A DNA stretch of 64,000 bases from an uncultured Bacteroides sp. (GTDB lineage: Bacteria > Bacteroidota > Bacteroidia > Bacteroidales > GCA-2748055): contig CAZRPW010000004.1 in the NCBI GenBank assembly GCA_964601975.1, forward strand, positions 18,050 to 82,049, read 5' to 3'. Position numbers and translations under genes: made by a program. Positions within the stretch are counted from its first letter, which is position 1. Every line of letters starts with the position of its first letter. The notes under the pieces were generated by a model that saw only the letters and a program-made list of their open reading frames with translations, was not told the DNA's origin and ran no database searches. Shown here piece after piece: positions 22,206 to 47,552 of this stretch.

Positions 22206-22859
22206 TTATAGCTTTTCCAGGTATATATTCCTGAATTGCATAGCTGAACCCTCCGATTGAATGAGGATGTTTCCCTCCCTGAGAGTCATCGCACTTCCTG
22301 AATTCTGAAGCACACCATTTACAATCACTTCCAGCATACCATCTTTGGAAGTGATGTCATAACTGTTCCATTCTCCAGCAGGTTTTTCACTAACTTCTTC
22401 CAATTTAGGAATGATAGTATACCTGTTTTCTTCGGAGCTTACCAGGTAAGTAGAGTCTTTAATTGTGATGCCAGATCCTTTTCCAATGAGGACCACATCC
22501 CCGGCATGATCTGCCATAAGCTGGCATTCAAGGGCCAGTGGCCAGATCATGTCTTTCCCCTGAACATTGAGCAGTACACCACTGTTTGTGGGTTCAGCTG
22601 TCCACCTCCACTCCACGTGAAGTTTATAATTGCTGTAGCTTTCCTTGCTTCGGATATAGCCATGCGGTTTGCCGCTGGTGTTTATAAGGCCTTCCTCCAC
22701 CCAGAACAAATCTTCTGCTTCCACATCGGGCGAACTTACAAAGATATTCCAGTTATCCAGGTTTTCTCCGTTAAATAAGACCAGCTTATTATCTGGTTTG
22801 CAGGCAAACAGGCAGGTGGTGAGAAAAAGAAAGGTGGCGGTTCTGAGGATAGGTTTCAT
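22206..22859 (-). CDS. DUF1080 (3-keto-disaccharide hydrolase-like) lipoprotein
   Basis: Lipobox LFAC, LFNGENLDNW, NYKLHVEWRW, NSGVL, GEWNSYDI, LQSEG..MQFRNI. Confidence 0.88.
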   Translation of the reverse strand: MKPILRTATFLFLTTCLFACKPDNKLVLFNGENLDNWNIFVSSPDVEAEDLFWVEEGLINTSGKPHGYIRSKESYSNYKLHVEWRWTAEPTNSGVLLNVQGKDMIWPLALECQLMADHAGDVVLIGKGSGITIKDSTYLVSSEENRYTIIPKLEEVSEKPAGEWNSYDITSKDGMLEVIVNGVLQNSGSAMTLREGNILIQSEGSAMQFRNIYLEKL

Positions 22860-22893
22860 ACAAATAGAGTTTTTAGTGTGATGGATTTCAATT

Positions 22894-23676
22894 TTAATAT
22901 TTTTCAGGGACAAATGTCTGGTCCGACATGGGTGGCCTTACATAGCCCTCCATGCTGATGGGCGGTAGCTCAATCTTTTTATGCTTTATCTCCTTATAAG
23001 GAACCAGGCTCAGCAAATGCCTGATGCAGTTGAGTCTTGCTTTTCTTTTGTTATCGGCATTGACAACGAACCAGGGGGAAAGCTTTGTGTCGGTGTGTGT
23101 GAACATCTCATCCTTAGCCTTACTGTATTCGATCCACCTGCTTCTCGATTCAAGGTCCATATCGCTGAATTTCCATCTTTTAAGCGGGTCGGTAATGCGC
23201 TCCCTGAACCGGTTCTCCTGTTCTTCGTCACTCACCGAGAACCAGTATTTAACCAGGATGATTCCCGAATGGATCAGCATTTCTTCGAATCGCGGACAGG
23301 AGCGGAGAAATTCCCAGTATTCATCATCGCTGCAAAAGCCCATCACTCTTTCGACGCCTGCCCGGTTGTACCAGCTGCGGTCAAACAGGACAATCTCTCC
23401 ATTGGCCGGGAGATGAGCAACATAGCGCTGGAAATACCACTGGGATTTTTCTCTTTCGGTGGGAACACCCAGGGCTACCACCCTGGCTATCCTTGGATTC
23501 AGCCGCTGAGTGATCCTTTTAATGACTCCACCCTTCCCGGCAGCATCTCTTCCCTCAAACAGGACAACTACCCGAAGTCCTTCAGCCTTCACCCATTCAT
23601 GCATTTTAACCAGCTCAAGTTGTAAGCGCTCAAGTTCTTTGAAGTAAAGCTTCTTATCAATATTTTGTTTGCTCAT
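22894..23676 (-). CDS. ppk2: Polyphosphate kinase 2
   Basis: Walker A FEGRDAAGKGG, Walker B LFDRSWYNRAGVERVMGF, PLKRWKFS.MD. Confidence 0.96.
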   Translation of the reverse strand: MSKQNIDKKLYFKELERLQLELVKMHEWVKAEGLRVVVLFEGRDAAGKGGVIKRITQRLNPRIARVVALGVPTEREKSQWYFQRYVAHLPANGEIVLFDRSWYNRAGVERVMGFCSDDEYWEFLRSCPRFEEMLIHSGIILVKYWFSVSDEEQENRFRERITDPLKRWKFSDMDLESRSRWIEYSKAKDEMFTHTDTKLSPWFVVNADNKRKARLNCIRHLLSLVPYKEIKHKKIELPPISMEGYVRPPMSDQTFVPEKY

Positions 23677-23685
23677 GAGTCCTTG

Positions 23686-24306
23686 CTATTTCGTTCCGAA
23701 GAGCCTGTCGCCTGCGTCTCCCAGACCAGGCATTATATAGCCCAGTTCGTTAAGGCCATCATCAAGGGATGCCAGGTAAATATCCACGTCGGGATGATCG
23801 CTTTCAATTCTGCGAACACCTTCCGGTGATCCGACGATGCAAACCAGTTTGATAAACTTAGCTCCTTCTTTTTTAAGGGTATGGATGGCCGAACTTGCAG
23901 TTCCGCCTGTGGCAAGCATTGGATCAAGAACCATCACCACGGCTTCACCTACGTTTCCCGGAAATTTGGCGTAATAATGCATCGGCTCAAGGGTCTTGTG
24001 GTTCCGGTATAATCCCACGTGACCAACCTTTGCAGTGGGAATCAGGTTTGTAATTCCATCCACCATACCAAGACCAGCCCTCAGGACAGGTACAAGGACA
24101 ATCTCCCGGGCCAGTTCCCAGGTGGTGCATCGTTGGAGAGGGGTTTCAATTTCGATCTCACGGACTGGAATATCCCGGGTGATCTCATAGGCCATTAAGC
24201 CGGCAATTTCATCAAGGTTTTCCCGGAAATCTTTTGTGCCGGTTTCCTTTTTACGAATCAGGGTAAGTTTGTGCTGGATCAGAGGGTGTTCGACAATTTT
24301 TAGCAT
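23686..24306 (-). CDS. upp: Uracil phosphoribosyltransferase
   Basis: [47 protein letters not shown]. Confidence 0.97.
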
Positions 24307-24317
24307 ATTATTTGTAC

Positions 24318-25874
24318 CTATCTTTTAAATACGGAGGGGTCTGTTTCCCGCTCATTGCCTCTGAATGCTGCCACAAAGGCCTGGTTATATCCTGAGGATT
24401 TGCACTTTGTTCTGAAAGCCAGGGCTTCCTGAAGGTTGAGGAATTCACCCACAGTGACCCGATAGGCTCCCTTGTAGTAATATTCCCAGGTGGATTGAGT
24501 AGATCCTGAGATCGTAACTGTGGGTTGACTATTGGCTTTTGAATTGGACAGAATTTGAACCCTGAATACAACCTGGTTGGGATCTACTGCAGCTACAGGT
24601 TCTGATTCCGGTTCCGCAAGCACAGGGATGGGTTTTGGCTCGGGCTTTTCTTTCTCTATGACGGGTATTACAGCGGGAGGAACAACGGTAGTCATCGCTT
24701 CGGGTTCTTCTTTAGGCTTCCGCCTTGGTTCTGGTTCCGGTTCTGGTTCTGGTTCCGGTTCCGGTTCCGGTTCCGGTTCCGGTTCCGGAGCAGCTTCACT
24801 GAGCAGGGGCAGGGCAGTCAGACTGAAGCCTGCTTCAATCTCTTCCTCAGATGCTGCTCCATAGGTGGCAGAAGTGTACCCCGAAGTGATCATGTCTTCA
24901 AGAAGAAGCGACATATCCTGGTTTTTCTGGTCAATGCCGGCGATTATAAAGGCGCTGTTGTTCAGCCCGATCTTGTGAACCTCACTACTTTGTTCCTCCT
25001 TGCCATTTGAAGAATATACAGCAAGTTTTCTGCTGGGGTGGATGGAAAAGCCTATCTCATCTTTATCGGTATTTACAAAATCAGTAAGATTCTGAGGTTT
25101 ATCCCAGCCATCTCCGTTGAAGGGACAGATGAAAATGTCATAGCCACCGTATCCCATATGACCCGATGATGAAAAGAAGAGATTGTTATGCTGGTCCAGG
25201 AAGGGATAAAACTCATGGCCACTGGTATTGATTTCCGAGCCAAGCGAGATCGGGGTCATCCAACCACTTTTCCCTTTTCTTGAAATGAAAAGATCCAGTC
25301 CTCCTTCTGTGGGTGTCAGGTCGGAGGCCATGATCATAAAATCTCCATTGGCCGAAATGGCAGGATGCATAAACCTTGTAGGTCCTGCAGTAAAGGGCAG
25401 CTGGTTGAAGGTGGTGACTTCCCCGTTAATAATGTTGGCCTCAAATATTTTTTCGCGTGTTCTGTTACCCGGAATTTCCACCTCTTTGGTAAAATATACG
25501 GTTTGATAGTTCCTTGTAAAGGCGGTCCCGGCAGGGGAGTAAGGAAAAGGATCATTGCTGAAGAGCGGCCTGCTGCTTTCCAGCGCAATATATTCCATCG
25601 GGACAAAATAGGAGGTAACCTGTCCGAATGCAATATGGTCGGGAATCATGTTCTGGTGGAATTTTGTATTCGAGAGAAATACCATTCCATTGAGGTAGAA
25701 GGATACGTCATTGGAAGGGCCATTGATCTCAAGGGCAATGGTATCTATAACCAGAAGCTCTGATACCGGAATGGAATCATTCTGTGCTGTGATGGGTGCT
25801 GCCTGGATTAGGAGCACACATACCAGGGGTGTCAGATAAATCAATTTTGCCATATGTGACCTGATCAACTTCAT
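24318..25874 (-). CDS. Exported protein: PD40/WD40-like beta-propeller, Pro-Glu linker, C-terminal SPOR domain
   Basis: Signal peptide; repeats [47 protein letters not shown]; (PE)n linker; C-terminal FRVQI...[14 protein letters not shown]......GY..AFVAA. Start could be 25874 or 25853. Confidence 0.8.
24727..24786. repeat. In-frame hexamer tandem repeat (GGTTCY)x10 encoding a Pro-Glu linker
   Basis: Ten consecutive GGTTCT/GGTTCC units inside the SPOR gene. Confidence 0.95.
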
Positions 25875-25884
25875 AAAAAACCTA

Positions 25885-26841
25885 TTACCAATGCCTGTAG
25901 TGCATAAAGAAGGGATCACTTTCCCCCAGATTAAAGCCCACAGAGACTTCAAAAATAATATTGTCATCATTCAGGTATCCGACCCTCGGGAACTCAAGGA
26001 AGACACCGGTGTAAAATTTTGGAAACTGATATTGGAAGAAGAGGGCAAAGATGTCCAGATCTTTCAAATAAGTTCCCAGGTAAAAATTTTTAAGATATAC
26101 TTTCAGGTAAGGCACCAGTTCCCTGAAGGGATCATGAATGGTTTCATCGTTTAGCGTAAGCAGGAGTGATGGTTCTATTACAATCCCCAATTCCTTGCTA
26201 ATTAAAAATTTATAAGCGGCAAAGGCGTGATATTGCCTTTTGAAGTTAGCATAGTTCAGGGTGCTGTCACCATCCTTAGTTCCAAAAAGGGTTGTTGATG
26301 ATATGCCTGCGTATGCATGGGGACCATAATAATATACTCCGATGTCCACATTGGGCCTGAATTTCGTTGAGAGTGTGTCAGAGACTGATTCGGCCGATTT
26401 TTTTGGTGTTGCAAAAATTCCCTTCAAAGTAACACCCGCTGAAATGTTTTGCAGATTTTGATTGTCCAGGGAATGATGATAGGCCCCGGAAACTGCCAGT
26501 CCTGAATTCCAGGAGAGATCGAACTGTTCCTGGAAAATATATGCTCCCACGCCAAGGTGTGAGTAATTCCCTTCCGATCCGGCTAATCGCTTATGTGCAT
26601 TAAGGATCTGGCTATCGGGCGATTTAGATGCTTTTGTGGTCAGACTTATATTTGTGAAATCCTTGCTGCCGACATAGCCGGGATTTAAGGTCATGGGATG
26701 GTAAATGGGAGCAGAAAGCAAGCCGGGCAGAGCGCTTTGCCCCTGAAGCGAAACTCCTGCAATGACGCTGATTACCAGGGCCAGAAAGGTCGTATTTACC
26801 TGGCGTTTTTTGCTATAATTTAGATTCCATTCCATATGCAA
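25885..26841 (-). CDS. PorP/SprF-family type IX secretion membrane beta-barrel protein (divergent)
   Basis: Signal peptide, TLNPGYVG (NPAYAG-like), GAYIF.E, S.GVTLK, D.G.YYY...YAGIS, EPSLLL, FEVSVGFNL. Confidence 0.75.
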   Translation of the reverse strand: MHMEWNLNYSKKRQVNTTFLALVISVIAGVSLQGQSALPGLLSAPIYHPMTLNPGYVGSKDFTNISLTTKASKSPDSQILNAHKRLAGSEGNYSHLGVGAYIFQEQFDLSWNSGLAVSGAYHHSLDNQNLQNISAGVTLKGIFATPKKSAESVSDTLSTKFRPNVDIGVYYYGPHAYAGISSTTLFGTKDGDSTLNYANFKRQYHAFAAYKFLISKELGIVIEPSLLLTLNDETIHDPFRELVPYLKVYLKNFYLGTYLKDLDIFALFFQYQFPKFYTGVFLEFPRVGYLNDDNIIFEVSVGFNLGESDPFFMHYRHW

Positions 26842-26885
26842 AAGGAAAGGTAATACAAAAATAACAAAATGTCATAAAAATGGGT

Positions 26886-27353
26886 TCAGTTGACCAGGTC
26901 TGAAATGATAAACTGGGTTTCCTGGTAGAAATCGCCTTCGGATATCAGTTTGTTGTTCGAACTGCTGCCATCATTCCCGATATCTGCATAAGCTTTGATA
27001 CTTCCGGCAACGATCACTATGAAGCGTTCATGTCCTGTGGTGTCGGCCGATACAGAGTACACCTGGGAAAGCCCGCCCCCACTGAAAGCGCTCACATCAA
27101 TAATGGTTCCGTTCAGGGTATTCCAGATGGCCAGATCTCCGGTAAATTCATAGACCACAGGTATATTTCCTACGGTGAGCATCTGGGGGTTTGCGGAGAT
27201 CAGGGCTGTTGCATGAATTTTCTGATTCTTTATATGTGCACTGATTTCGGCAGTGGGGTTGATCATTAGAATGGGTTCTTCTTCAAGATTCAGGCAACTG
27301 CCCAGGGGCAGCAAAAAGAAAAACAAAATGGCAGCTGGTATTCCTATTTTCAT
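26886..27353 (-). CDS. Hypothetical lipoprotein
   Basis: Lipobox LGSC; beta-rich mature part; 12-bp gap to the upstream gene. Confidence 0.7.
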   Translation of the reverse strand: MKIGIPAAILFFFLLPLGSCLNLEEEPILMINPTAEISAHIKNQKIHATALISANPQMLTVGNIPVVYEFTGDLAIWNTLNGTIIDVSAFSGGGLSQVYSVSADTTGHERFIVIVAGSIKAYADIGNDGSSSNNKLISEGDFYQETQFIISDLVN

Positions 27354-27365
27354 TTACACTTTCAT

Positions 27366-27851
27366 TTACATTTGCAATTTAACCTTTTTATTTGGATAGT
27401 TTTTGTATTGGATCAGTATGCCCACGCAACCAATATTTTCTTTGATTTCCTCTTCGGTCGATTCCCTTGCAAGTGCTTCTACCCTTATGATCAGCGATTT
27501 TGTGACATCAAATCCAAGGCCCAGTGATTCCAGGTAGCGATCCTCCTCATTATCATATAGCACCTGGTTGGTTTGTTTGTCGATGAGGACAAAGTGAATG
27601 GGGTACATTTTTTTGTGCGTACAGAACGAGAGGATGTAATCTTTCTGACCATAGAAAACAGCGTTCACTTCAAGGGTGTCAAGGGGGGCTAAGCTGGCTG
27701 AATGGGACTGACTGTACATTTTATATCCTTTCTGAATATCGTACCGGCAATCTCCGTCAAGGTGATGCATCTCGCAATTTTGCGAAATAAGCTTAAATGG
27801 CACAAGCAGCAGTAGTACTACGAAAATCTGAATATATCCTTTTTGTCTCAT
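27366..27851 (-). CDS. Hypothetical exported protein (beta-sandwich-like, 4 Cys)
   Basis: Signal peptide; mature part starts QNC..., contains VFYGQKDYILSFC, YDN, and ends CVGILIQYK; tightly packed in the operon. Confidence 0.75.
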   Translation of the reverse strand: MRQKGYIQIFVVLLLLVPFKLISQNCEMHHLDGDCRYDIQKGYKMYSQSHSASLAPLDTLEVNAVFYGQKDYILSFCTHKKMYPIHFVLIDKQTNQVLYDNEEDRYLESLGLGFDVTKSLIIRVEALARESTEEEIKENIGCVGILIQYKNYPNKKVKLQM

Positions 27852-27861
27852 AATTATTGGT

Positions 27862-28809
27862 TTATTGATTTCCCTGAACCATGCTGTTTCTTAACTCAAC
27901 GACAGTGGCCTTTAACTCGATAAAATCAGCTTCTGATAAACTGGGCTGACTTTGTTCGTCCGCCCCCCCTATTTGCAATTTTTTGGGCTGTTTTTCATCA
28001 GAACTACTTGAAGTTTTGATGGTTACTTTCCCGGTGCCAGTCTCAATCCTGTCATAGATGGCTTTAATTTTTTCAAGATCACGTATTGTGGATTCCACCC
28101 CCGGATCGCTACTGTTAATGTTTCGCGCGAACATCATAAAATTGTCAATGGTGTACTTCTGATCAGCCAGGTGCTGAAGCAACTGGCCTGCGCTTGCGTA
28201 ATCTTTAATCATGTTAACTGCAAGAAAAAGGCTTTCAGTAAAGGCTCCTGCAGAAAGCATTACCACCGTGTTTGGCCTTTCATTTCTTTCGCAGTAACTG
28301 AGGATATTCATGAAGGCTTCGTTGGAGATTATATAGAGCGAATCCAGGTATTCTACATTGTTCCGTGCTTTTTCAATCATCTTTTCATCCACCGCTTCGG
28401 TAATGCTGATCTCTTCGGACAGGGATTTCACCGTTTCCAGATAATCCAGCGTTTCCTCATGACGGCCGAAAAGGGCCACATAGGCCAGGTCGGTCATGTA
28501 AAGCCCAAGCGCATAAGTCTTCGCTTTTGAATCAATATACATGTCTGCATTTTTTGCAGGATTCAGGAGTAATGAGTTATAGCTAATATTGTCAAAGTTA
28601 ATGACGCCCAGCATCTCCGCCGGAGATGGATAGAGGTGATAAATCTGGTTGAATGATTCAATCCCCCCTTGTGATTCGGTATTATCCATATCCTGGACCA
28701 GAACAGGGGATCCCTTTTGTCCCGACTGACATGCCCCTGCTAGTAACATGGCAGCAATGATCGCCATGGGGATAAAACTGTTTCCTGTAAATTTCATATT
28801 TTTTTTCAT
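27862..28809 (-). CDS. Hypothetical all-helical lipoprotein
   Basis: Lipobox AGAC; YPSPAEM, LLNP...Y.....K..ALGLY.TDLAY..LF, MLSAGAFTESLFLA; helical composition. Confidence 0.8.
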   Translation of the reverse strand: MKKNMKFTGNSFIPMAIIAAMLLAGACQSGQKGSPVLVQDMDNTESQGGIESFNQIYHLYPSPAEMLGVINFDNISYNSLLLNPAKNADMYIDSKAKTYALGLYMTDLAYVALFGRHEETLDYLETVKSLSEEISITEAVDEKMIEKARNNVEYLDSLYIISNEAFMNILSYCERNERPNTVVMLSAGAFTESLFLAVNMIKDYASAGQLLQHLADQKYTIDNFMMFARNINSSDPGVESTIRDLEKIKAIYDRIETGTGKVTIKTSSSSDEKQPKKLQIGGADEQSQPSLSEADFIELKATVVELRNSMVQGNQ

Positions 28810-28845
28810 ATTAAAAGCGCTTCAATTTAAGATAAATAAATCAAA

Positions 28846-31800
28846 TTAACTCCTGGCAGACCTGCTTCTCCTTAGATTGCCGCTATATTCAATCGCCCTG
28901 TACAATGCGCGGTATCTTAAAAGCGCATAGAGAACCAGGATCATGGCCCATATGGCTAGAAGGTTAAAGGTGCGTGTGGGAATGTATGTTCCCCCGAGGC
29001 GTTTGACAGATGCATAAAAATGGGCCCGACCATTCTTCTTTGTGGGATAGGTGTATACCGGATCCATCTTCCGGATCAGGAGGCCATCTCTTTTTATAAG
29101 CTTATGAAGTTCATTTCTGTTCAGCACAAGCTGGGCCAGCTGTTCATTATGGTATTCCCTTTTCATTTGCACATAGGCCCCCTTACCACCAGCCTCTCTC
29201 ATCAGCGAATCAATAAGCATATCCTTCTTTCTTGAAAGCTTATCCCTGTGATCACGTAGTGCAGATTGATAGTTTTGCAGCCAGCGTATGGCCTCTTTCC
29301 CATTACTCGCTGAGAACTGGTCCGGAACCAGGCTTTGAGCATTGGGGTAAGGGGTGCTAAGGGTAATGGAGGCGAAGGCGTTTTCTATGGTCCGAAGACT
29401 TGCAGAAAGTTCCTTTTCCCGATTCTCCTCCAGAAAAGAAAGGGCATCCTCTATCTCCTGGGTGATAGCAGGGACGAGAAATTGCATGTCATAGTTTATG
29501 TTGCTCTCAAGCATCTCTGTAGAAAACAACGGTTTCTGGTAAGCATTGTTCTCAAACTGGTTCACTGCAAGGGCTTCGTAGGCCCAGCGACTTGCCATAA
29601 AGTCGCCCGAAAAGGGAACCACAAGATCAGATGCAAGTTTGTAGTGTAGTTTGTCGAACTTTACAATTACTCCGGCCAGGAGGATTTGGGGTACAAGCAG
29701 AAAGGGGACTATTACATAAATTGCAACTACCGATTTCAGGCCGTCGGATAAGAGCAGTCCCAGCACATTGGCAAAGCAGGCTGTCGAAAACAGGATCAGC
29801 CAGTATGAGAATGTAAGCCCTCTAATCTCCATAATCAGGTTGCCAATTAAAACAAACATAAGCATCTGTATGCCTGATAAAATAAACAGCAGGGAGATTT
29901 TGGAGAAGAGGTAGGCGCTTCGGCTCAGGTTGAGGAAGGACTCTCTTTCATGGATTTTACGGTCTCTGTGGATCTCTTCTGCTGCAATTATAAGCCCGAG
30001 AAAAAGCGCCACAACCACACACATAAACAGGTATGAAGGGAGGTTCTCGTTCTGACTGAAAAGGTAGGTGTGAGGGTCGGTGTCATCGCCGGAAACATAT
30101 TTGGAAAAGAATCCAAGGATGAAGGCCAGGAGCGGAGCCACAAGAAGTGCAATGGACATGAACTGGCGGTCTGCCAGTTTTGAAAGCAGGTTTCTTTTGA
30201 AGAAGATCTGAAATTGCCTGAATGCTCCCGGAACCTGGAACTTATGAGAGGGTATAGGGCTTTTTTCAGAAGAGAATTCCATCTTCGCCTCAATCTTCTC
30301 CCGGTAAAGCGAGTACCACTCGGCCGGCGTGGATTTTCGTTTCGCTGTGAAGGTGCCGGATTCATCCACGTCTCTTGCCTCTATGACATTAAGAATATCG
30401 TCGGGATTGACATGTCCGCATGCCTGACATTCACTCTCTGAGGCGTCTACCCTGTCGGCCAGTTTTTTAAAATAGGTGATTGCTTCAATGGGATTACCTG
30501 AATAAACCGCGTAGCCGCCCCTGTCAAGGACGATCAGGTGATCGAACTGTTTAAAGAGTTCGGACGAGGGCTGGTGAATGGTTGAGAGAACCAATTTCCC
30601 TTTAAGAGTCTGTTCTTTTAGCAGTGCGATTACGTTTTCAGAATCGGTGGATGATAATCCGGATGTGGGTTCATCCACAAAAAGTAAATGGGGTTCACGA
30701 ATCAGTTCGAGGGCTATATTCAGCCTTTTCCGTTGTCCCCCGCTAATGAATTTATTAAGCGGTGATCCAACTTTCAGGTCTTTCGCATCGAATAGATCAA
30801 GTTCGGTAAGCAGGTTATTGACAGATTCATCTACCTCCTGGCTTGTGTGCCCATCCAGGCAAAGACGGGCATTGAAAAGCAGGTTTTGCCTGACAGTAAG
30901 CTCCTCCATCAACAGGTCGTCCTGGGGAATATATCCGATCATTCCTTCCAGCTCCTTGTGATTGCTATGCAGATTAAGTCCATTTATAAGGATTTCACCC
31001 GACACCGGCTTTAGTCCGCCGTTCAGTACCTTAAGGAGGGTGGACTTGCCTGCCCCACTTCCACCAATGATTCCAACCAGCTGACCTGATTTGCCCTGGA
31101 AACTGAATTTCCTGATTCCGTGGGATGAGTTTCTGAAGCGATATTCTATCTCCCTTGCACAGAACCTGACCGCCTGATTGTTAGTATCCAGTATATATCC
31201 AGATACTATATCCGAGTAGTAGAGAGGGCTAATGCCTGGGCCCCTGATTGCCCCACCCCGGGGAAAGATGTAAACATGCCTGGGGAAAATATATTTTCCT
31301 TTGCTTTCCAGTTTTGCTCTCCCCACATACTGGAACAGGTAAATGTTTGCCCGTTTAATCCTTAGGATGAAGATTTGTCCGGGAAGGCCGTCTTTCTGCA
31401 GATGCCCCATTTCTCCTTCCATGAATCCAGGGTCATCACTGACGATAAGGACCTTATCTTTTCCTGGAATCTGGTAGAATTTGTCATTTATAAATGTTGA
31501 GCAATTCTCATATTCCTCGCGGGTAATCAGAAGCCCCTCAGCAACCGTTTGAACTGCGTCGGAGATGGTGCCTGAAAACCCGGCGCTGGCCATCCCTGCA
31601 TCTGAAAAGAATCTGGTAAACCTGATTAAACTGAGGAGGATCATGAACCTTTGGGTGATATTCAGTTCCTCCACAATCTGGTAACATATTTTCAGGATTT
31701 TTACAGACCATACAGAGATTTTCTTTTCTCTTTGTCCCTTCCCTACTAAATCGAACTCCCTGACATATTCTTCAAATACAAGTAAGTACTTATCGGCCAG

Positions 31801-31929
31801 AGACTTGCTAAACTGTTCCGTGAGATAGGATTCGACAAAGTTTCTCGCAAGCAGATGCATGGCTCCCCTGTCGATGCTTACCATAATGGCAAACAAACGC
31901 ATTAAGGAGTTTAGCATGGATTCATTCAT
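28846..31929 (-). CDS. Large fused ABC transporter, ABCG/ABC-2 topology (N-terminal extension - NBD - TMD)
   Basis: Walker A GGSGAGKST, GYIPQDD, signature ISGGQRKRLNIALEL, Walker B/D-loop LFVDEPTSGLS, H-loop TIHQPS; six C-terminal TMs with EEIHRDRKIHERE and SRWAYEAL. Confidence 0.9.
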   Translation of the reverse strand: MNESMLNSLMRLFAIMVSIDRGAMHLLARNFVESYLTEQFSKSLADKYLLVFEEYVREFDLVGKGQREKKISVWSVKILKICYQIVEELNITQRFMILLSLIRFTRFFSDAGMASAGFSGTISDAVQTVAEGLLITREEYENCSTFINDKFYQIPGKDKVLIVSDDPGFMEGEMGHLQKDGLPGQIFILRIKRANIYLFQYVGRAKLESKGKYIFPRHVYIFPRGGAIRGPGISPLYYSDIVSGYILDTNNQAVRFCAREIEYRFRNSSHGIRKFSFQGKSGQLVGIIGGSGAGKSTLLKVLNGGLKPVSGEILINGLNLHSNHKELEGMIGYIPQDDLLMEELTVRQNLLFNARLCLDGHTSQEVDESVNNLLTELDLFDAKDLKVGSPLNKFISGGQRKRLNIALELIREPHLLFVDEPTSGLSSTDSENVIALLKEQTLKGKLVLSTIHQPSSELFKQFDHLIVLDRGGYAVYSGNPIEAITYFKKLADRVDASESECQACGHVNPDDILNVIEARDVDESGTFTAKRKSTPAEWYSLYREKIEAKMEFSSEKSPIPSHKFQVPGAFRQFQIFFKRNLLSKLADRQFMSIALLVAPLLAFILGFFSKYVSGDDTDPHTYLFSQNENLPSYLFMCVVVALFLGLIIAAEEIHRDRKIHERESFLNLSRSAYLFSKISLLFILSGIQMLMFVLIGNLIMEIRGLTFSYWLILFSTACFANVLGLLLSDGLKSVVAIYVIVPFLLVPQILLAGVIVKFDKLHYKLASDLVVPFSGDFMASRWAYEALAVNQFENNAYQKPLFSTEMLESNINYDMQFLVPAITQEIEDALSFLEENREKELSASLRTIENAFASITLSTPYPNAQSLVPDQFSASNGKEAIRWLQNYQSALRDHRDKLSRKKDMLIDSLMREAGGKGAYVQMKREYHNEQLAQLVLNRNELHKLIKRDGLLIRKMDPVYTYPTKKNGRAHFYASVKRLGGTYIPTRTFNLLAIWAMILVLYALLRYRALYRAIEYSGNLRRSRSARS

Positions 31930-33031
31930 GGGGAAAAACCATTTTCATCTTTCCTTTTTCATCTTTCGTTTTCTCAAAGACCAGGTGTCCGCCATGGGCT
32001 TCCATAATCATTCGGGAGACCGCCAGGCCAATTCCCATGTTCAGATTCAGGGGGCTATCGTTTGTTGAGAAATGATTGCTCAGAAAATCAAACAGGGAAT
32101 CTGAATAATTGTCTCCCTGGTCTTCCACCTGGCACTCCACTTTTTCATCCTTCTCGATGCTTGTGATCAGGATTTCTCCACCTTTACCTGTATGTTCTTC
32201 CGCAAAACGGATCAGGTTTACCAGACAACTCACAAGCAGGCCCGAATCACCTTTGACCGTATAGTTGGCCGATCCCGAAACATTTTTTAAACTGATTCCC
32301 AGTTCCTTTTGTTCCTCACTGGTTTCAATGGCGCCATACTGGATTACCTGTGAAATGGATACCTGCTCCTTATTCAGGGAAAATCCGGGTGATTTTAATA
32401 CGGATATTTGCCTGGCAAGTACAGAGAACTGTTCCAGTTTAAATACAGAATTGTCGAGGATATTTACAACCTCGGTGAGTTCGTCGCCTTTAATTTTTGT
32501 TTTAAGCATGTGCAGTGTCCCCATAATCTGGTTCAGGGGGGTGCTGATCTCATTGCTGATGGAGTTAATAATCTCCGATTTCAGGCCGTCCAGGTTGAGC
32601 AATTCCACATTCGCTTTTTCCAGCTCTTCCAGGATTTGCCTGTTCTTTTTCTTCAGGTGGTAGACTTCCAGGGAACTGTTGATGGATGCCCTGACTTCAT
32701 CGGCCTGCATGGGTTTCTTAATGTACCCATGAACACGGCCTACGTTAACAGCTTCAATCACTGTTTCAGTGTCTGTAAAGGCAGTAAGCAGGTAGCGGCG
32801 AATATCAGGGTGTTTTTCAGCCACGATTTCCAGCAGTTCGGTACCCATCATCTTGGGCATTCGTTGGTCTGAGACGAGTACCTGAACCTCTTTTTCCTCC
32901 AGGATTTTCAGAACCTCTTCCGGTGAATCGGATAGGATAAGGTCATAGTCATCTCTGAAAGTTGCTTCAAAAAGCTTCAGATTCATTGGTAAATCATCAA
33001 CATATAGCACTGTAGGCTTATTCTGGTCCAT
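31922..33031 (-). CDS. Receiver domain fused to a degenerate histidine-kinase module (probable pseudokinase)
   Basis: Intact REC (YVDD, SDQRMP, LTA, KKP). The H-box reads SNEISTPL instead of SHE.RTPL, the N-box NLIRFA instead of NL..NA, and G1 DQGDN; G2 GIGLAVSR is kept. Confidence 0.8.
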   Translation of the reverse strand: MDQNKPTVLYVDDLPMNLKLFEATFRDDYDLILSDSPEEVLKILEEKEVQVLVSDQRMPKMMGTELLEIVAEKHPDIRRYLLTAFTDTETVIEAVNVGRVHGYIKKPMQADEVRASINSSLEVYHLKKKNRQILEELEKANVELLNLDGLKSEIINSISNEISTPLNQIMGTLHMLKTKIKGDELTEVVNILDNSVFKLEQFSVLARQISVLKSPGFSLNKEQVSISQVIQYGAIETSEEQKELGISLKNVSGSANYTVKGDSGLLVSCLVNLIRFAEEHTGKGGEILITSIEKDEKVECQVEDQGDNYSDSLFDFLSNHFSTNDSPLNLNMGIGLAVSRMIMEAHGGHLVFEKTKDEKGKMKMVFPHE

Positions 33032-33063: not shown

Positions 33064-33071
33064 CAAATATA
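33064..33071 (-). promoter_or_regulatory. -7 box (TATATTTG) for the pseudokinase-ABC operon
   Basis: Exact TAnnTTTG match 32 nt upstream of ATG 33031. Confidence 0.55.
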
Positions 33072-33178: not shown

Positions 33179-33559
33179 ATGAAAAAATCAAGCCTTTTGC
33201 TCCTTCCTGCAACAATACTGTTTCTGGTGTTTCAGTCCTTCATTTTCAATTTTACTACAGGGTCTGAATTCCCTGCCGATGTGAAGGAAATATTAAAGAC
33301 CTCATGTTATGATTGTCATTCAAAGGATGCTTCCAATAAAAAGGGAACCCTTGCCCTGAACTTCGATAAATGGGATGATTACAAAATTACCAAAAGAATT
33401 TCTAAGCTTGACGCAATTGCGGAAGTGATCGAAGAGGGTAAAATGCCACCTGCAAAATATCTCAAAAATAATGCGGATAAGGCCCTCTCTGACGATCAGG
33501 AAGAATTGGTCCTTAACTGGGTTGAAGAGGAGGCAGAAAAACTGATGGGAGAGAATTGA
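33179..33559 (+). CDS. Exported monoheme c-type cytochrome, Haem_bd-like domain
   Basis: Signal/TM, ILKTSCYDCHS (CXXCH), LNF..W, GKMPP (candidate axial Met). Confidence 0.85.
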   Translation: MKKSSLLLLPATILFLVFQSFIFNFTTGSEFPADVKEILKTSCYDCHSKDASNKKGTLALNFDKWDDYKITKRISKLDAIAEVIEEGKMPPAKYLKNNADKALSDDQEELVLNWVEEEAEKLMGEN

Positions 33560-34035
33560 TGCGAAGGCAAATAAAGCTTACAGGCCTGATCCTTTTGGGT
33601 CTGCTGATAGCCATTCAGTTTATTCAGCCCGAGCGAAACCTTTCTGAGGATGTGAAGGAGAATGATATGCTGAATTCCATGGCTGTGCCCGCTGAGGTGG
33701 CTGAACTCCTGCAAAATTCCTGCTATGATTGTCATTCTGAATATACCCGCTATCCCTGGTACAGTAAAATCTCGCCCGTATCATGGTTCCTGAACCGGCA
33801 TATTGAGCAGGGAAAAGAGGACCTTAATTTCAATGAATACGCAGGGCTTAAGGAGCGGAAGAAGATTGGAGTCCTGACATCTGTTTGCGAGGTCCTTGAA
33901 TCGGGGGCCATGCCTTTGCCTGGCTACCTGTTTATTCACCAGAGCGCAGTTTTGGATGATGAAGAAATTGCAGAGATCTGTGACTGGGCCGAATCTGAAG
34001 CGCTGAAAATCATGCAGTCAGACGATACTCCCTGA
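33559..34035 (+). CDS. Haem_bd-domain monoheme c-type cytochrome
   Basis: IQFIQPERN, NSCYDCHSEYTRYPWYSKISPVSW, GKEDLNF.E, AMPL..Y..IH; TGATG stop/start overlap with the upstream paralog. Confidence 0.9.
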   Translation: MRRQIKLTGLILLGLLIAIQFIQPERNLSEDVKENDMLNSMAVPAEVAELLQNSCYDCHSEYTRYPWYSKISPVSWFLNRHIEQGKEDLNFNEYAGLKERKKIGVLTSVCEVLESGAMPLPGYLFIHQSAVLDDEEIAEICDWAESEALKIMQSDDTP

Positions 34036-34775: not shown

Positions 34776-34799
34776 TTCTGCAGGAAAAAGGAGTTTTAG

Positions 34800-34872
34800 A
34801 GCCACTCAGGGGACTCGAACCCCCGACCTGTTCATTACGAATGAACTGCTCTACCAGCTGAGCTAAAGTGGC
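34800..34872 (-). tRNA. tRNA-Thr (anticodon CGT)
   Basis: Reverse complement GCCACTT TA GCTC AGCTGGTA GAGC A GTTCA TT CGT AA TGAAC AGGTC GGGGG TTCGAGT CCCCT GAGTGGC T folds as a cloverleaf; CCA is not encoded. Confidence 0.97.
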
Positions 34873-46859: not shown

Positions 46860-47552
46860 ATGAAATCCAGACTATTTATTTTATTGATTGCTTTATCATT
46901 TTATGCCTGTAATCATTCAGAGCAGAAAGCCCTGAGCCTTTTCAACGGATCAGATTTATCCGGCTGGCATGTGGATGTTCCGGCGATGGATGCGAATCCG
47001 GATACGCTTAATCCTTTCATCGTACGCGACGGTATGCTGGTTAGCCTGGGAACCCCGGGGGGGCATATAATAACGGACAAGGAGTTTCAGAATTACAGAC
47101 TTTTAGTCGAATATCGTTTTGCAGGAGAACCTGGTAATTGCGGTGTATTGGTTCATGCAAGTACGCCTCGTGCACTGTATGGTATGTTCCCAAAATCCAT
47201 GGAGGTTCAGATGGAGCACAAAAATGCCGGTGATTTTTGGTGTATTGTTGAGGATATTTCGGTGCCCGATATGGAAAGCAGACGCGGACCGAAAGAAAAC
47301 TGGGGAATCACAGAAGGGAAGGCCCGGAACGTGAAAAACCTGACAGATGACTCCGAGAAGCCGGTGGGCGAATGGAATACCATGCAGATAGAAGCCGTGG
47401 GAAGTGAGGTAAAGGTTTGGGTAAACGGAGTACTGGTTAATCATGGCTTTGATTGTACCGCCGATAAGGGCCGGATTGCCCTGCAGGCTGAGGGCTCCGA
47501 AGTGGAGTTCAGAAAGCTTGAATTAAAAGCAATCGACAAGATTTCAGATTAG
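46860..47552 (+). CDS. DUF1080 (3-keto-disaccharide hydrolase-like) lipoprotein
   Basis: Lipobox FYAC, LFNGSDLSGW, NYRLLVEYRF, GNCGVL, GEWNTM.I, IALQAEGSEVEFR. Confidence 0.9.
   Translation: MKSRLFILLIALSFYACNHSEQKALSLFNGSDLSGWHVDVPAMDANPDTLNPFIVRDGMLVSLGTPGGHIITDKEFQNYRLLVEYRFAGEPGNCGVLVHASTPRALYGMFPKSMEVQMEHKNAGDFWCIVEDISVPDMESRRGPKENWGITEGKARNVKNLTDDSEKPVGEWNTMQIEAVGSEVKVWVNGVLVNHGFDCTADKGRIALQAEGSEVEFRKLELKAIDKISD

Follow-up and report, generated by a model that had tools for sequence, protein, structure and literature searches.

A candidate ABCG-like transporter module with two unannotated exported partner families in Bacteroidota

A gene trio encoding an ABCG-like ATP-binding cassette (ABC) transporter, a 315-aa lipoprotein (p315) and a 161-aa exported protein (p161) forms a core that recurs across Bacteroidota, and no description of such a module was found in a full-text literature search. 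The trio was recognized in a stretch of 64,000 nucleotides, referred to as the window, from an uncultured Bacteroides sp. (GenBank assembly GCA_964601975.1, contig CAZRPW010000004.1, positions 18,050 to 82,049 of the forward strand), where ten successive open reading frames (ORFs) occupy positions 22206-33031 of the minus strand. Comparative data divide this run into two blocks, and the ten genes, as far as can be read from sequence and synteny, are not one system. Block A consists of the gene for a pseudokinase with a receiver (REC) domain, followed by the ABC, p315 and p161 genes, and block B has the order PorP-like > PD40/SPOR-like > upp > ppk2 > DUF1080, with the gene for a 155-aa lipoprotein lying between the two (Table 1).

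Conservation and boundaries of the module

Scanning one genome per species for the ABC protein yielded 80 full-length homologues with 39-72% identity, which according to the record titles belong to Bacteroidales, Flavobacteriales, Cytophagales and metagenome-assembled genomes (MAGs) labelled Chitinophaga or Sphingobacteriaceae. Using iterated hidden Markov model (HMM) searches of the flanks, with simple ORF calls as gene calls, the p315 family was found beside the ABC in 54/80 loci, the association extending to 10 of 11 ABC subgroups, and the p161 family in 35/80 loci (39/80 with a divergent form, cluster c21, which is homologous to p161 with an hhalign probability of 97%). The gene order varies by ABC subgroup and can be ABC>p315>p161, p315>p161>ABC, p315>ABC or ABC>p315. 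A reciprocal search, in which a subgroup p315 profile was run against metagenomes and returned 80 loci, revealed p161 after p315 in all 72 loci with room for it; of 51 p315 loci, 41 have the ABC following at a distance of up to 1.5 kb. Because of this difference, the p315-p161 pair is regarded as the tightest unit, with the ABC as its usual but not obligatory neighbour. Co-conservation of the ABC, 315-aa and 161-aa genes, on which the initial annotation had staked its proposal, is hence found throughout Bacteroidota, under several different gene orders and whether the search starts from the ABC or from p315.

The limits of the unit were defined by comparison with closer relatives. All ten genes are present in unchanged order in relatives with 85% and 78% ABC identity. 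In locus L085 (74% ABC identity), only the REC-pseudokinase > ABC > p315 > p161 order is observed and is immediately followed by a convergent gene. In L086 (70% ABC identity), three genes, namely a HisKA/HATPase gene, a homologue of the 155-aa protein and an NmrA-type gene, are located between p161 and PorP, after which the PorP > PD40 > upp > ppk2 > DUF1080 order is intact. Synteny breaks in L085 and L086 thus indicate that blocks A and B are separable. Furthermore, the iterated HMM searches of the flanks of the 80 distant ABC loci gave zero matches for PorP and the 155-aa protein, and matches for the PD40-SPOR protein were only at the level of its repeats and concerned non-adjacent genes, and so these three proteins appear never to be linked to the ABC outside close relatives. 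A promoter box of the TAnnTTTG type is conserved 5' of the REC gene only and not before PorP. Taken together, block A is one conserved unit behind this box, and block B and the 155-aa lipoprotein are lineage-specific neighbours only.

These results bear directly on the view of the initial annotation that the ten genes, or at least those from the ABC to PorP/PD40-SPOR, make up one trans-envelope system tied to accessory parts of the type IX secretion system (T9SS). The tight spacing on one strand, the order kept in relatives with 78-85% ABC identity and the envelope nature of PorP-like and peptidoglycan-binding PD40 proteins speak for such a system. However, it is contradicted by synteny, that is by the absence of PorP and 155-aa matches from the 80 distant loci, the end of block A after p161 in L085, and the inserted genes of L086, in which block B keeps its order without adjoining block A, and it is considered very improbable. 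The suggestion that upp, ppk2 and DUF1080 are merely co-located is consistent with the data, as they accompany PorP/PD40 in L081, L082, L084 and L086 and not the ABC.

Some genomes carry additional copies of parts of the module. In a Bacteroidia MAG, a second, inverted p315-p161 pair together with receiver-domain fragments (L004:1573-2896, minus strand) is located upstream of the REC-pseudokinase>ABC>p315>p161 module, which suggests a local duplication. Two paralogous ABCs of the family were found in single genomes (L056 and L058 in MAG JBFWMB, L008 and L065 in MAG JBDLJL), and the arrangements of paralogues differ, for example DUF6272>SiaC>ABC>p315>p161-like and p315>p161>ABC<SiaC<DUF6272. 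L085 also contains a second ABC of the family (L085:22510-23087, minus strand; 33% identity over the periplasmic loop and the last transmembrane segment), which lies directly upstream of a Haem_bd gene pair. A Haem_bd pair is also present in the window at 33179-34035 on the plus strand, divergent from the REC-pseudokinase; it was considered as a general partner of the module and rejected, since, although such a pair stands beside the paralogous ABC in L085, none was found in the 80 genome loci. In some ABC loci lacking p315 (L059:8134-9915, plus strand, and also L053 and L068), genes for Hpt, STAS, CcmE-like OB-fold (sub-threshold) and PepSY_TM-like proteins are located upstream on the same strand and may represent an alternative accessory and regulatory set.

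The transporter, its periplasmic partners and the signalling genes

The ABC protein unites a nucleotide-binding domain (NBD) and a transmembrane domain (TMD) in one chain, in which the NBD comes first. No variation was seen among 16 homologues in Walker A (GGSGAGKST), the Q-loop, the signature (ISGGQRKR), Walker B (DEPT) or the His of the H-loop, and the membrane part matches ABC2_membrane with 61 bits (cutoff 26.9) and ABC2_membrane_7 with 38.9 bits (cutoff 22.7). The protein can be aligned with ABCG1 (7fdv, residues 275-761) and ABCG2 across NBD plus TMD, and with TIGR00955 it reaches 259.3 bits over residues 264-807 against a cutoff of 736.35, indicating a related protein that is not a member of that subfamily. 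It can hence be assigned, by its sequence, to the ABC-2/ABCG class outside the curated TIGR00955 subfamily; the name given to it in source databases, 'multidrug transport ATPase', is a generic label. Hydropathy predicts six transmembrane (TM) segments (590-608, 632-650, 678-696, 710-728, 734-752 and 987-1008), with TM5 and TM6 flanking the main external loop. Given this layout and the basic C-terminal tail, residues ~760-986 are predicted to be periplasmic, and the large extracytoplasmic loop noted in the initial annotation fits the hydropathy profile. This loop is present in all 80 homologues with near-constant length and gave no Pfam or PDB sequence match. Sequence comparison detected no homology between the loop and p315, nor between the N-terminal region and p161.

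The N-terminal 258 residues of the ABC are conserved among homologues and gave no meaningful sequence match to solved structures. TerB (PF05099) is matched by the N-termini of 30 of 40 family members, with a best E value of 1e-10. An FHA phospho-binding domain considered for residues 150-258 is unsupported, being matched by 1 of 40 members at E 0.042 and by no PDB entry. A defence-system reading, prompted by TerB, likewise found no support in PADLOC defence models, which gave only generic ABC-ATPase matches for the ABC and none for six other proteins.

The arrangement with an NBD N-terminal to an ABC-2-type membrane domain is shared with ABCG1, ABCG2 and ABCG5/G8 (TIGR00955, 'pigment precursor permease' subfamily), as is the external loop between TM5 and TM6 of eukaryotic ABCG half-transporters. 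In the eukaryotic proteins this loop is short, whereas that of the window ABC, with ~225 residues, is far longer, and the window protein further differs in being bacterial and in having a 258-residue TerB-like N-terminal region and two dedicated periplasmic partners. Among bacterial proteins, Rv1747 of Mycobacterium tuberculosis is an exporter of the ABCG-like kind, in which FHA domains at the N-terminus bind phospho-groups and regulate the protein. Rv1747 and the window ABC have in common an ABC-2-type NBD-TMD fusion in bacteria and an N-terminal cytoplasmic region tied to phospho-signalling, whose regulatory role is putative in the window ABC. This region of the window ABC differs in comprising a TerB-like part and an unclassified segment, and Rv1747 is not known to have a periplasmic loop or partner proteins of this kind.

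The initial annotation recognized no family for the three exported proteins of 315, 161 and 155 aa, and indeed none of them matches a Pfam or NCBIfam family or has a meaningful sequence match to solved structures. No Pfam match was obtained in 61 members of the p315 family or in 43 members of the p161 family. At E<=1e-3, the p315 family counts 2274 representative clusters. Source databases, RefSeq among them, call its proteins 'hypothetical', and p315 is the founding member of a large unannotated family. A lipobox-type Cys after the hydrophobic stretch of the signal peptide was seen by eye in nearly all of 55 members (40 by the strict pattern), and two Marinifilaceae copies have an uncleaved signal anchor without Cys. 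The AlphaFold2 (AF2) models of p315 (pLDDT 74, pTM 0.73) and p161 (pLDDT 79, pTM 0.72) were both built from shallow alignments of sequences 60-94% identical. The former predicts an all-helical core (residues 52-252), a small beta-hairpin (261-281) and a C-terminal helix, and gave nothing below E 0.6 with Foldseek against PDB; the latter is all-beta. A p315 homologue of Ancylomarina longa (WP_127342439.1, L046:8588-9517, plus strand) is named 'FAS1 domain-containing protein' in UniRef and hypothetical in RefSeq. None of the 61 p315 family members has a Fasciclin Pfam match, and the FAS1 label looks like an automatic false positive. Cluster c29, an exported protein of 165-180 aa with conserved Cys that three loci encode in the space separating p161 from the ABC, was ruled out by comparison as a p161 homologue.

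A structural feature connecting the two partners is the hairpin insert of p315, which measures 26-36 residues in 32 of 33 genes adjoining p161 and 4-11 residues in all 16 genes without an adjacent p161 (Fisher p = 5e-12, not corrected for phylogeny). Such a partner-dependent insert points to a physical contact between p315 and p161, and we infer from the correlation that the hairpin serves as the docking element for p161.

At the cytoplasmic side, a signalling gene was found within 3 kb of the ABC in 33 of 67 loci with enough flank, and the genes in question appear to encode either REC-kinases lacking the phospho-acceptor His or partner-switch pairs resembling SiaB/SiaC. The window protein belongs to the former type, with scores of 65.7 bits for Response_reg (PF00072), 38.2 for HATPase_c (cutoff 26.4) and 23.9 for HisKA (cutoff 26.9). 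Its H-box reads SNEISTPL, with Asn in place of the phospho-acceptor His; this position is N, Q or T in every ABC-linked orthologue, and unlinked paralogues keep His. Alignment with homologues showed the receiver residues to be retained (DD, phospho-acceptor D55, Thr and Lys), and by eye the HATPase_c G1 box is the degenerate DQGDN and the G2 box GIGLA. Regulators adjacent to the ABC contain no DNA-binding output domain.

The commonest further neighbour families of the ABC are SiaC (PF09345) in 26 loci and DUF6272 in 20, and in L076 and L077 the order on one strand is PP2C > DUF6272 > SiaC > ABC > p315 > p161-like. Compared with the solved SiaB/SiaC complex of Pseudomonas aeruginosa (PDB 6kko), DUF6272 reaches E 2.7e-13 with SiaB, and the SiaC-like proteins reach E 6.6e-16 with SiaC. 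Many related ABC loci hence resemble the P. aeruginosa SiaABCD system (6kko; PMC8457831) in carrying PP2C (SpoIIE), SiaB-like DUF6272 and SiaC-like PF09345 genes. They differ in the presumed output partner, which in SiaABCD is the diguanylate cyclase SiaD and here would be an ABC transporter. Among the window proteins, no SiaC (PF09345), SiaB-like or PP2C gene was found at the locus, and the REC-pseudokinase takes the equivalent position. In the Sia pathway, phosphorylation of SiaC by SiaB stops SiaC from binding and activating its partner, and DUF1987 proteins have been proposed to modulate adjacent proteins generally (PMC8457831). The overlap of the REC gene with the ABC start, the loss of His with retention of the receiver, the Sia-type neighbours and the TerB matches of the N-termini make it reasonable to suppose that the ABC is gated by way of the N-terminal region on its cytoplasmic side. 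That the receiver protein acts as the gate, as envisaged in the initial annotation, is therefore plausible, other clades carrying SiaB/SiaC-type or REC/PP2C genes beside the ABC.

Gene run, neighbouring genes and promoter boxes

With the most plausible starts, the 8-bp overlap of the REC-kinase and ABC genes is followed by gaps of 36, 10, 12, 44, 10, 11, 9 and 34 bp, in full agreement with the run initially described. The run is flanked upstream by the divergent Haem_bd gene pair and downstream by a convergent M28 peptidase gene. Pfam and NCBIfam also agree with the initial labels for receiver/HATPase_c, fused ABC, PorP_SprF, PD40, upp, ppk2 and DUF1080. For the PD40-SPOR protein, the PD40 part of the label stands, and the SPOR part falls just under threshold, with 20.3 bits against 21 on the C-terminal 100 residues.

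Block B represents ordinary neighbours, namely a pair of PorP-like and PD40/peptidoglycan-binding proteins plus the housekeeping genes upp, ppk2 and DUF1080. Like the T9SS proteins PorP/SprF and PorE, the pair combines a PorP_SprF-like barrel with a PD40 propeller having a peptidoglycan-binding-type C-terminus. Unlike them, both proteins are below NCBIfam cutoffs (68.6 against 90.55 bits with TIGR03519 for the PorP-like protein; 98.7 against 600 bits with NF052230 PorE, over the propeller region only, for the PD40 protein), the C-terminus is SPOR-like and not OmpA-like, and the pair is tied to the ABC module in close relatives only. Between the propeller and the SPOR-like domain runs a long linker of low complexity, (EP)n, at residues ~390-420 (window 24600-24770, minus strand). 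A second DUF1080 paralogue, with 32% identity to the copy at 22206-22859, is present in the window at 46881-47534 on the plus strand. The 155-aa lipoprotein appears to be lineage-specific and independent of both conserved blocks, since its homologue in L086 (68% identity) has inserted genes on either side, towards p161 and towards PorP, and the gene is missing after p161 in L085.

Both promoter boxes of the initial annotation are present, and only one of them is conserved. In the window, as in L081, L083, L084, L085 and L086, a TAnnTTTG box (TATATTTG in the window) stands 40-42 nt 5' of the start codon of the REC-pseudokinase gene, and it is the likely promoter of block A. The TATTTTTG box, which had been suggested as possibly splitting the unit before porP, carries a G to A change in L081 and L082 and is missing in L084 and L086, so that it is a possible, weakly supported internal promoter. 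The overall number of TAnnTTTG matches in the window is at chance level (51 observed against 44.6 +/- 6.9 expected), and counts from sigma-70 promoter and terminator scans were likewise no different from chance. Rfam and tRNA scans gave no RNA gene within the ten-gene region, the sole one detected in the window (Rfam, ARAGORN) being tRNA-Thr (anticodon CGT) at 34799-34872 on the minus strand.

Table 1. Features of the ten-gene run and c29 copies at other loci (window positions unless a locus is named)
Feature	Position	Strand	Evidence or remark
TATATTTG box, Bacteroidota -7-type element	33064-33071	-	TAnnTTTG match, conserved in relatives
REC-pseudokinase, receiver fused to His-less HisKA/HATPase_c	31922-33031	-	Stop overlaps ABC start by 8 bp
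ABC, ABCG-type NBD-TMD fusion, 1027 residues	28846-31929	-	ABC_tran + ABC2_membrane
ABC residues 1-258, putative cytoplasmic N-terminal region: TerB-like helical domain and unclassified segment (~150-258)	31156-31929	-
ABC residues 259-490, NBD	30460-31155	-	ABC_tran 110 bits
ABC residues 570-760, ABC-2/ABCG-type membrane domain, TM1-TM5	29650-30222	-	ABC2_membrane, hydropathy
ABC residues 761-986, predicted ~225-residue periplasmic loop between TM5 and last TM, expanded ABCG 'ECL3'	28972-29649	-	Hydropathy
ABC residues 987-1027, last TM, basic cytoplasmic tail RYRALYRAIEYSGNLRRSRSARS, stop codon	28846-28971	-	Hydropathy segment 987-1008
p315, 315-aa helical lipoprotein, lipobox LLAGAC	27862-28809	-	No family match; commonest ABC neighbour
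p315 residues 256-291, predicted beta-hairpin insert	27937-28044	-	AF2 strands 261-265, 277-281
p161, 161-aa exported beta-sandwich protein	27366-27851	-	Signal peptide, 4 conserved Cys
155-aa lipoprotein, lipobox LPLGSC	26886-27353	-	No family match (Pfam, NCBIfam), no PDB match
TATTTTTG box, in 44-bp gap 5' of PorP-like gene	26856-26863	-	TAnnTTTG match
PorP/SprF-like outer-membrane protein	25885-26841	-	PF11751 72.5 bits (cutoff 22.3)
Exported PD40 beta-propeller protein, SPOR-like C-terminus	24318-25874	-	PD40 34.9 bits; start = second Met of ORF
upp	23686-24306	-	278 bits (cutoff 208), equivalog model
ppk2	22894-23676	-	PPK2 380 bits (cutoff 302), equivalog model
DUF1080/3-keto-disaccharide-hydrolase-like lipoprotein	22206-22859	-	PF06439 (3keto-disac_hyd) 110 bits
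c29 copies	L015:2130-2633, L018:3116-3655, L024:9500-9991	+	No Pfam match in sole scanned copy (L018)

Proposed function and its alternatives

The function proposed for the module is that of an ATP-driven ABCG-type exporter or floppase, whose loops dock p315, which in turn holds p161, and which, controlled by phospho-signals, passes on a hydrophobic envelope molecule. This proposal is given a probability of about 0.5, the existence and composition of the module being much more certain than the transport step. According to this model, the ABC would act as a homodimeric type V (ABCG-like) exporter or floppase, and the two ~225-residue periplasmic loops of the dimer would build a platform above the membrane, on which the membrane-tethered helical lipoprotein p315 would dock and retain p161 via its beta-hairpin insert. 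A hydrophobic or amphipathic envelope molecule would be passed from the inner membrane to the p315/p161 acceptor pair, with a cytoplasmic gate acting through the TerB-like N-terminal domain of the ABC. In the window lineage, the kinase-like protein without His would supply the gate with its phosphorylatable receiver, and in others a SiaB/SiaC-type partner switch would do so.

Several observations weigh against this model. No p315 is encoded nearby in 26 of the 80 ABC loci and no ABC near 10 of the 51 p315-p161 pairs, from which it follows that the ABC, p315 and p161 need not be encoded, or need not work, together; where p315 is missing near the 26 ABCs, it may be encoded at another site of the same genome. 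The N-terminus of the window ABC itself has no TerB match at E<=0.1. Most insert-less p315 proteins fall in one clade, so that the correlation of insert and partner is partly phylogenetic; two insert-less copies (L050, L071) fall elsewhere in the tree. Fold matches of p161 are weak and of a generic beta-sandwich kind (PliG, GOLD and CPE C-terminal domain; E >= 5e-4, TM-score 0.3-0.56).

The LolCDE-LolA, MacAB, FtsEX-EnvC, NosDFY-NosL and BceAB-RS systems combine an inner-membrane ABC, a large periplasmic domain and periplasmic or lipoprotein partners, with Bce including a signalling system as well. The present module is like them in general logic only, as a partnered ABC with a large periplasmic domain, and unlike them it has no FtsX/MacB-type permease domain and its partners come from two families absent from Pfam. 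Pfam and NCBIfam searches gave no LolC/E, MacB (FtsX), LolA/B, MlaC/D or LptF/G/C match above threshold for the membrane part of the ABC, p315, p161 or the 155-aa protein, and no Lol/Mla/Lpt/MacB or NosD/NosL-type fold was among the Foldseek matches listed for p315 and p161. In FtsEX-EnvC/PcsB and NosDFY-NosL, precedents exist for mechanotransmission, by which ATP hydrolysis would move the periplasmic loop and thereby switch or load p315/p161 with nothing crossing the membrane. The presence of a large periplasmic domain together with periplasmic and lipoprotein partners of its own, the cytoplasmic signalling inputs and the conserved polar residues (Y, D, E, R, N, Q) in the p315 helical bundle, which suggest a binding or catalytic site, can be explained in this way. 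However, the membrane domain is of the ABC-2/ABCG type, whose characterised cases mostly export lipids, glycans or drugs, no FtsX/MacB-type domain was detected by Pfam, and neither p315 nor p161 showed an enzyme-like family or fold, and mechanotransmission is for these reasons held to be unlikely.

Quite unlikely, in turn, is a stress-responsive efflux or detoxification pump, in which the ABC would expel an antimicrobial peptide, a detergent or a metal(loid)-linked species, with p315/p161 as shields or sensors and the signalling proteins tuning expression or activity. A precedent is offered by Bce, in which an ABC with a large loop is paired with a two-component system, and TerB, matched by the N-termini of most family members compared, is linked to tellurite and stress resistance. 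Signalling genes are frequent beside the ABC, the database name 'multidrug transport ATPase' points the same way, though generic, and the Sia pathway responds to environmental stimuli (PMC8457831). Against efflux stand the vertical conservation across the phylum with dedicated unannotated partners, atypical for drug pumps, the adjacent regulators without DNA-binding output and the absence of matches to defence or resistance families in the PADLOC search.

Within the preferred exporter or floppase model, a bolder and rather improbable extension is that the trio constitutes a Bacteroidota-wide trans-periplasmic hand-over machine, in which the gated floppase would extract a phylum-typical lipid or lipoprotein and load it onto p315/p161 for the outer membrane. 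If real, it would be an analogue of the Lol, Mla or ABCA1-apolipoprotein systems made from unrelated parts.

It is understood only in part how Bacteroidota transfer their unusual lipids, and many of their lipoproteins, from the inner membrane to the outer one. The present analysis defines a compact, phylum-wide module, for whose members RefSeq and UniProt offer only the names 'ATP-binding cassette domain-containing protein' and 'hypothetical protein', and two partner families absent from Pfam, one of them with >2,000 representative clusters. It also corrects the scope of the system, whose annotation should not extend to upp, ppk2, DUF1080 or the T9SS-like genes. The two unannotated families and the unusual TerB-ABCG architecture suggest new parts for an ABC exporter with periplasmic accessories and cytoplasmic gating, and experimental handles are at hand in cultivable carriers such as Ancylomarina longa and Labilibaculum, the predicted contact of the p315 hairpin with p161 and the predicted regulatory input. 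At the same time, the neighbouring Sia-type genes suggest that partner switches of the SiaB/SiaC type have an output of a new kind, a transporter rather than a cyclase.

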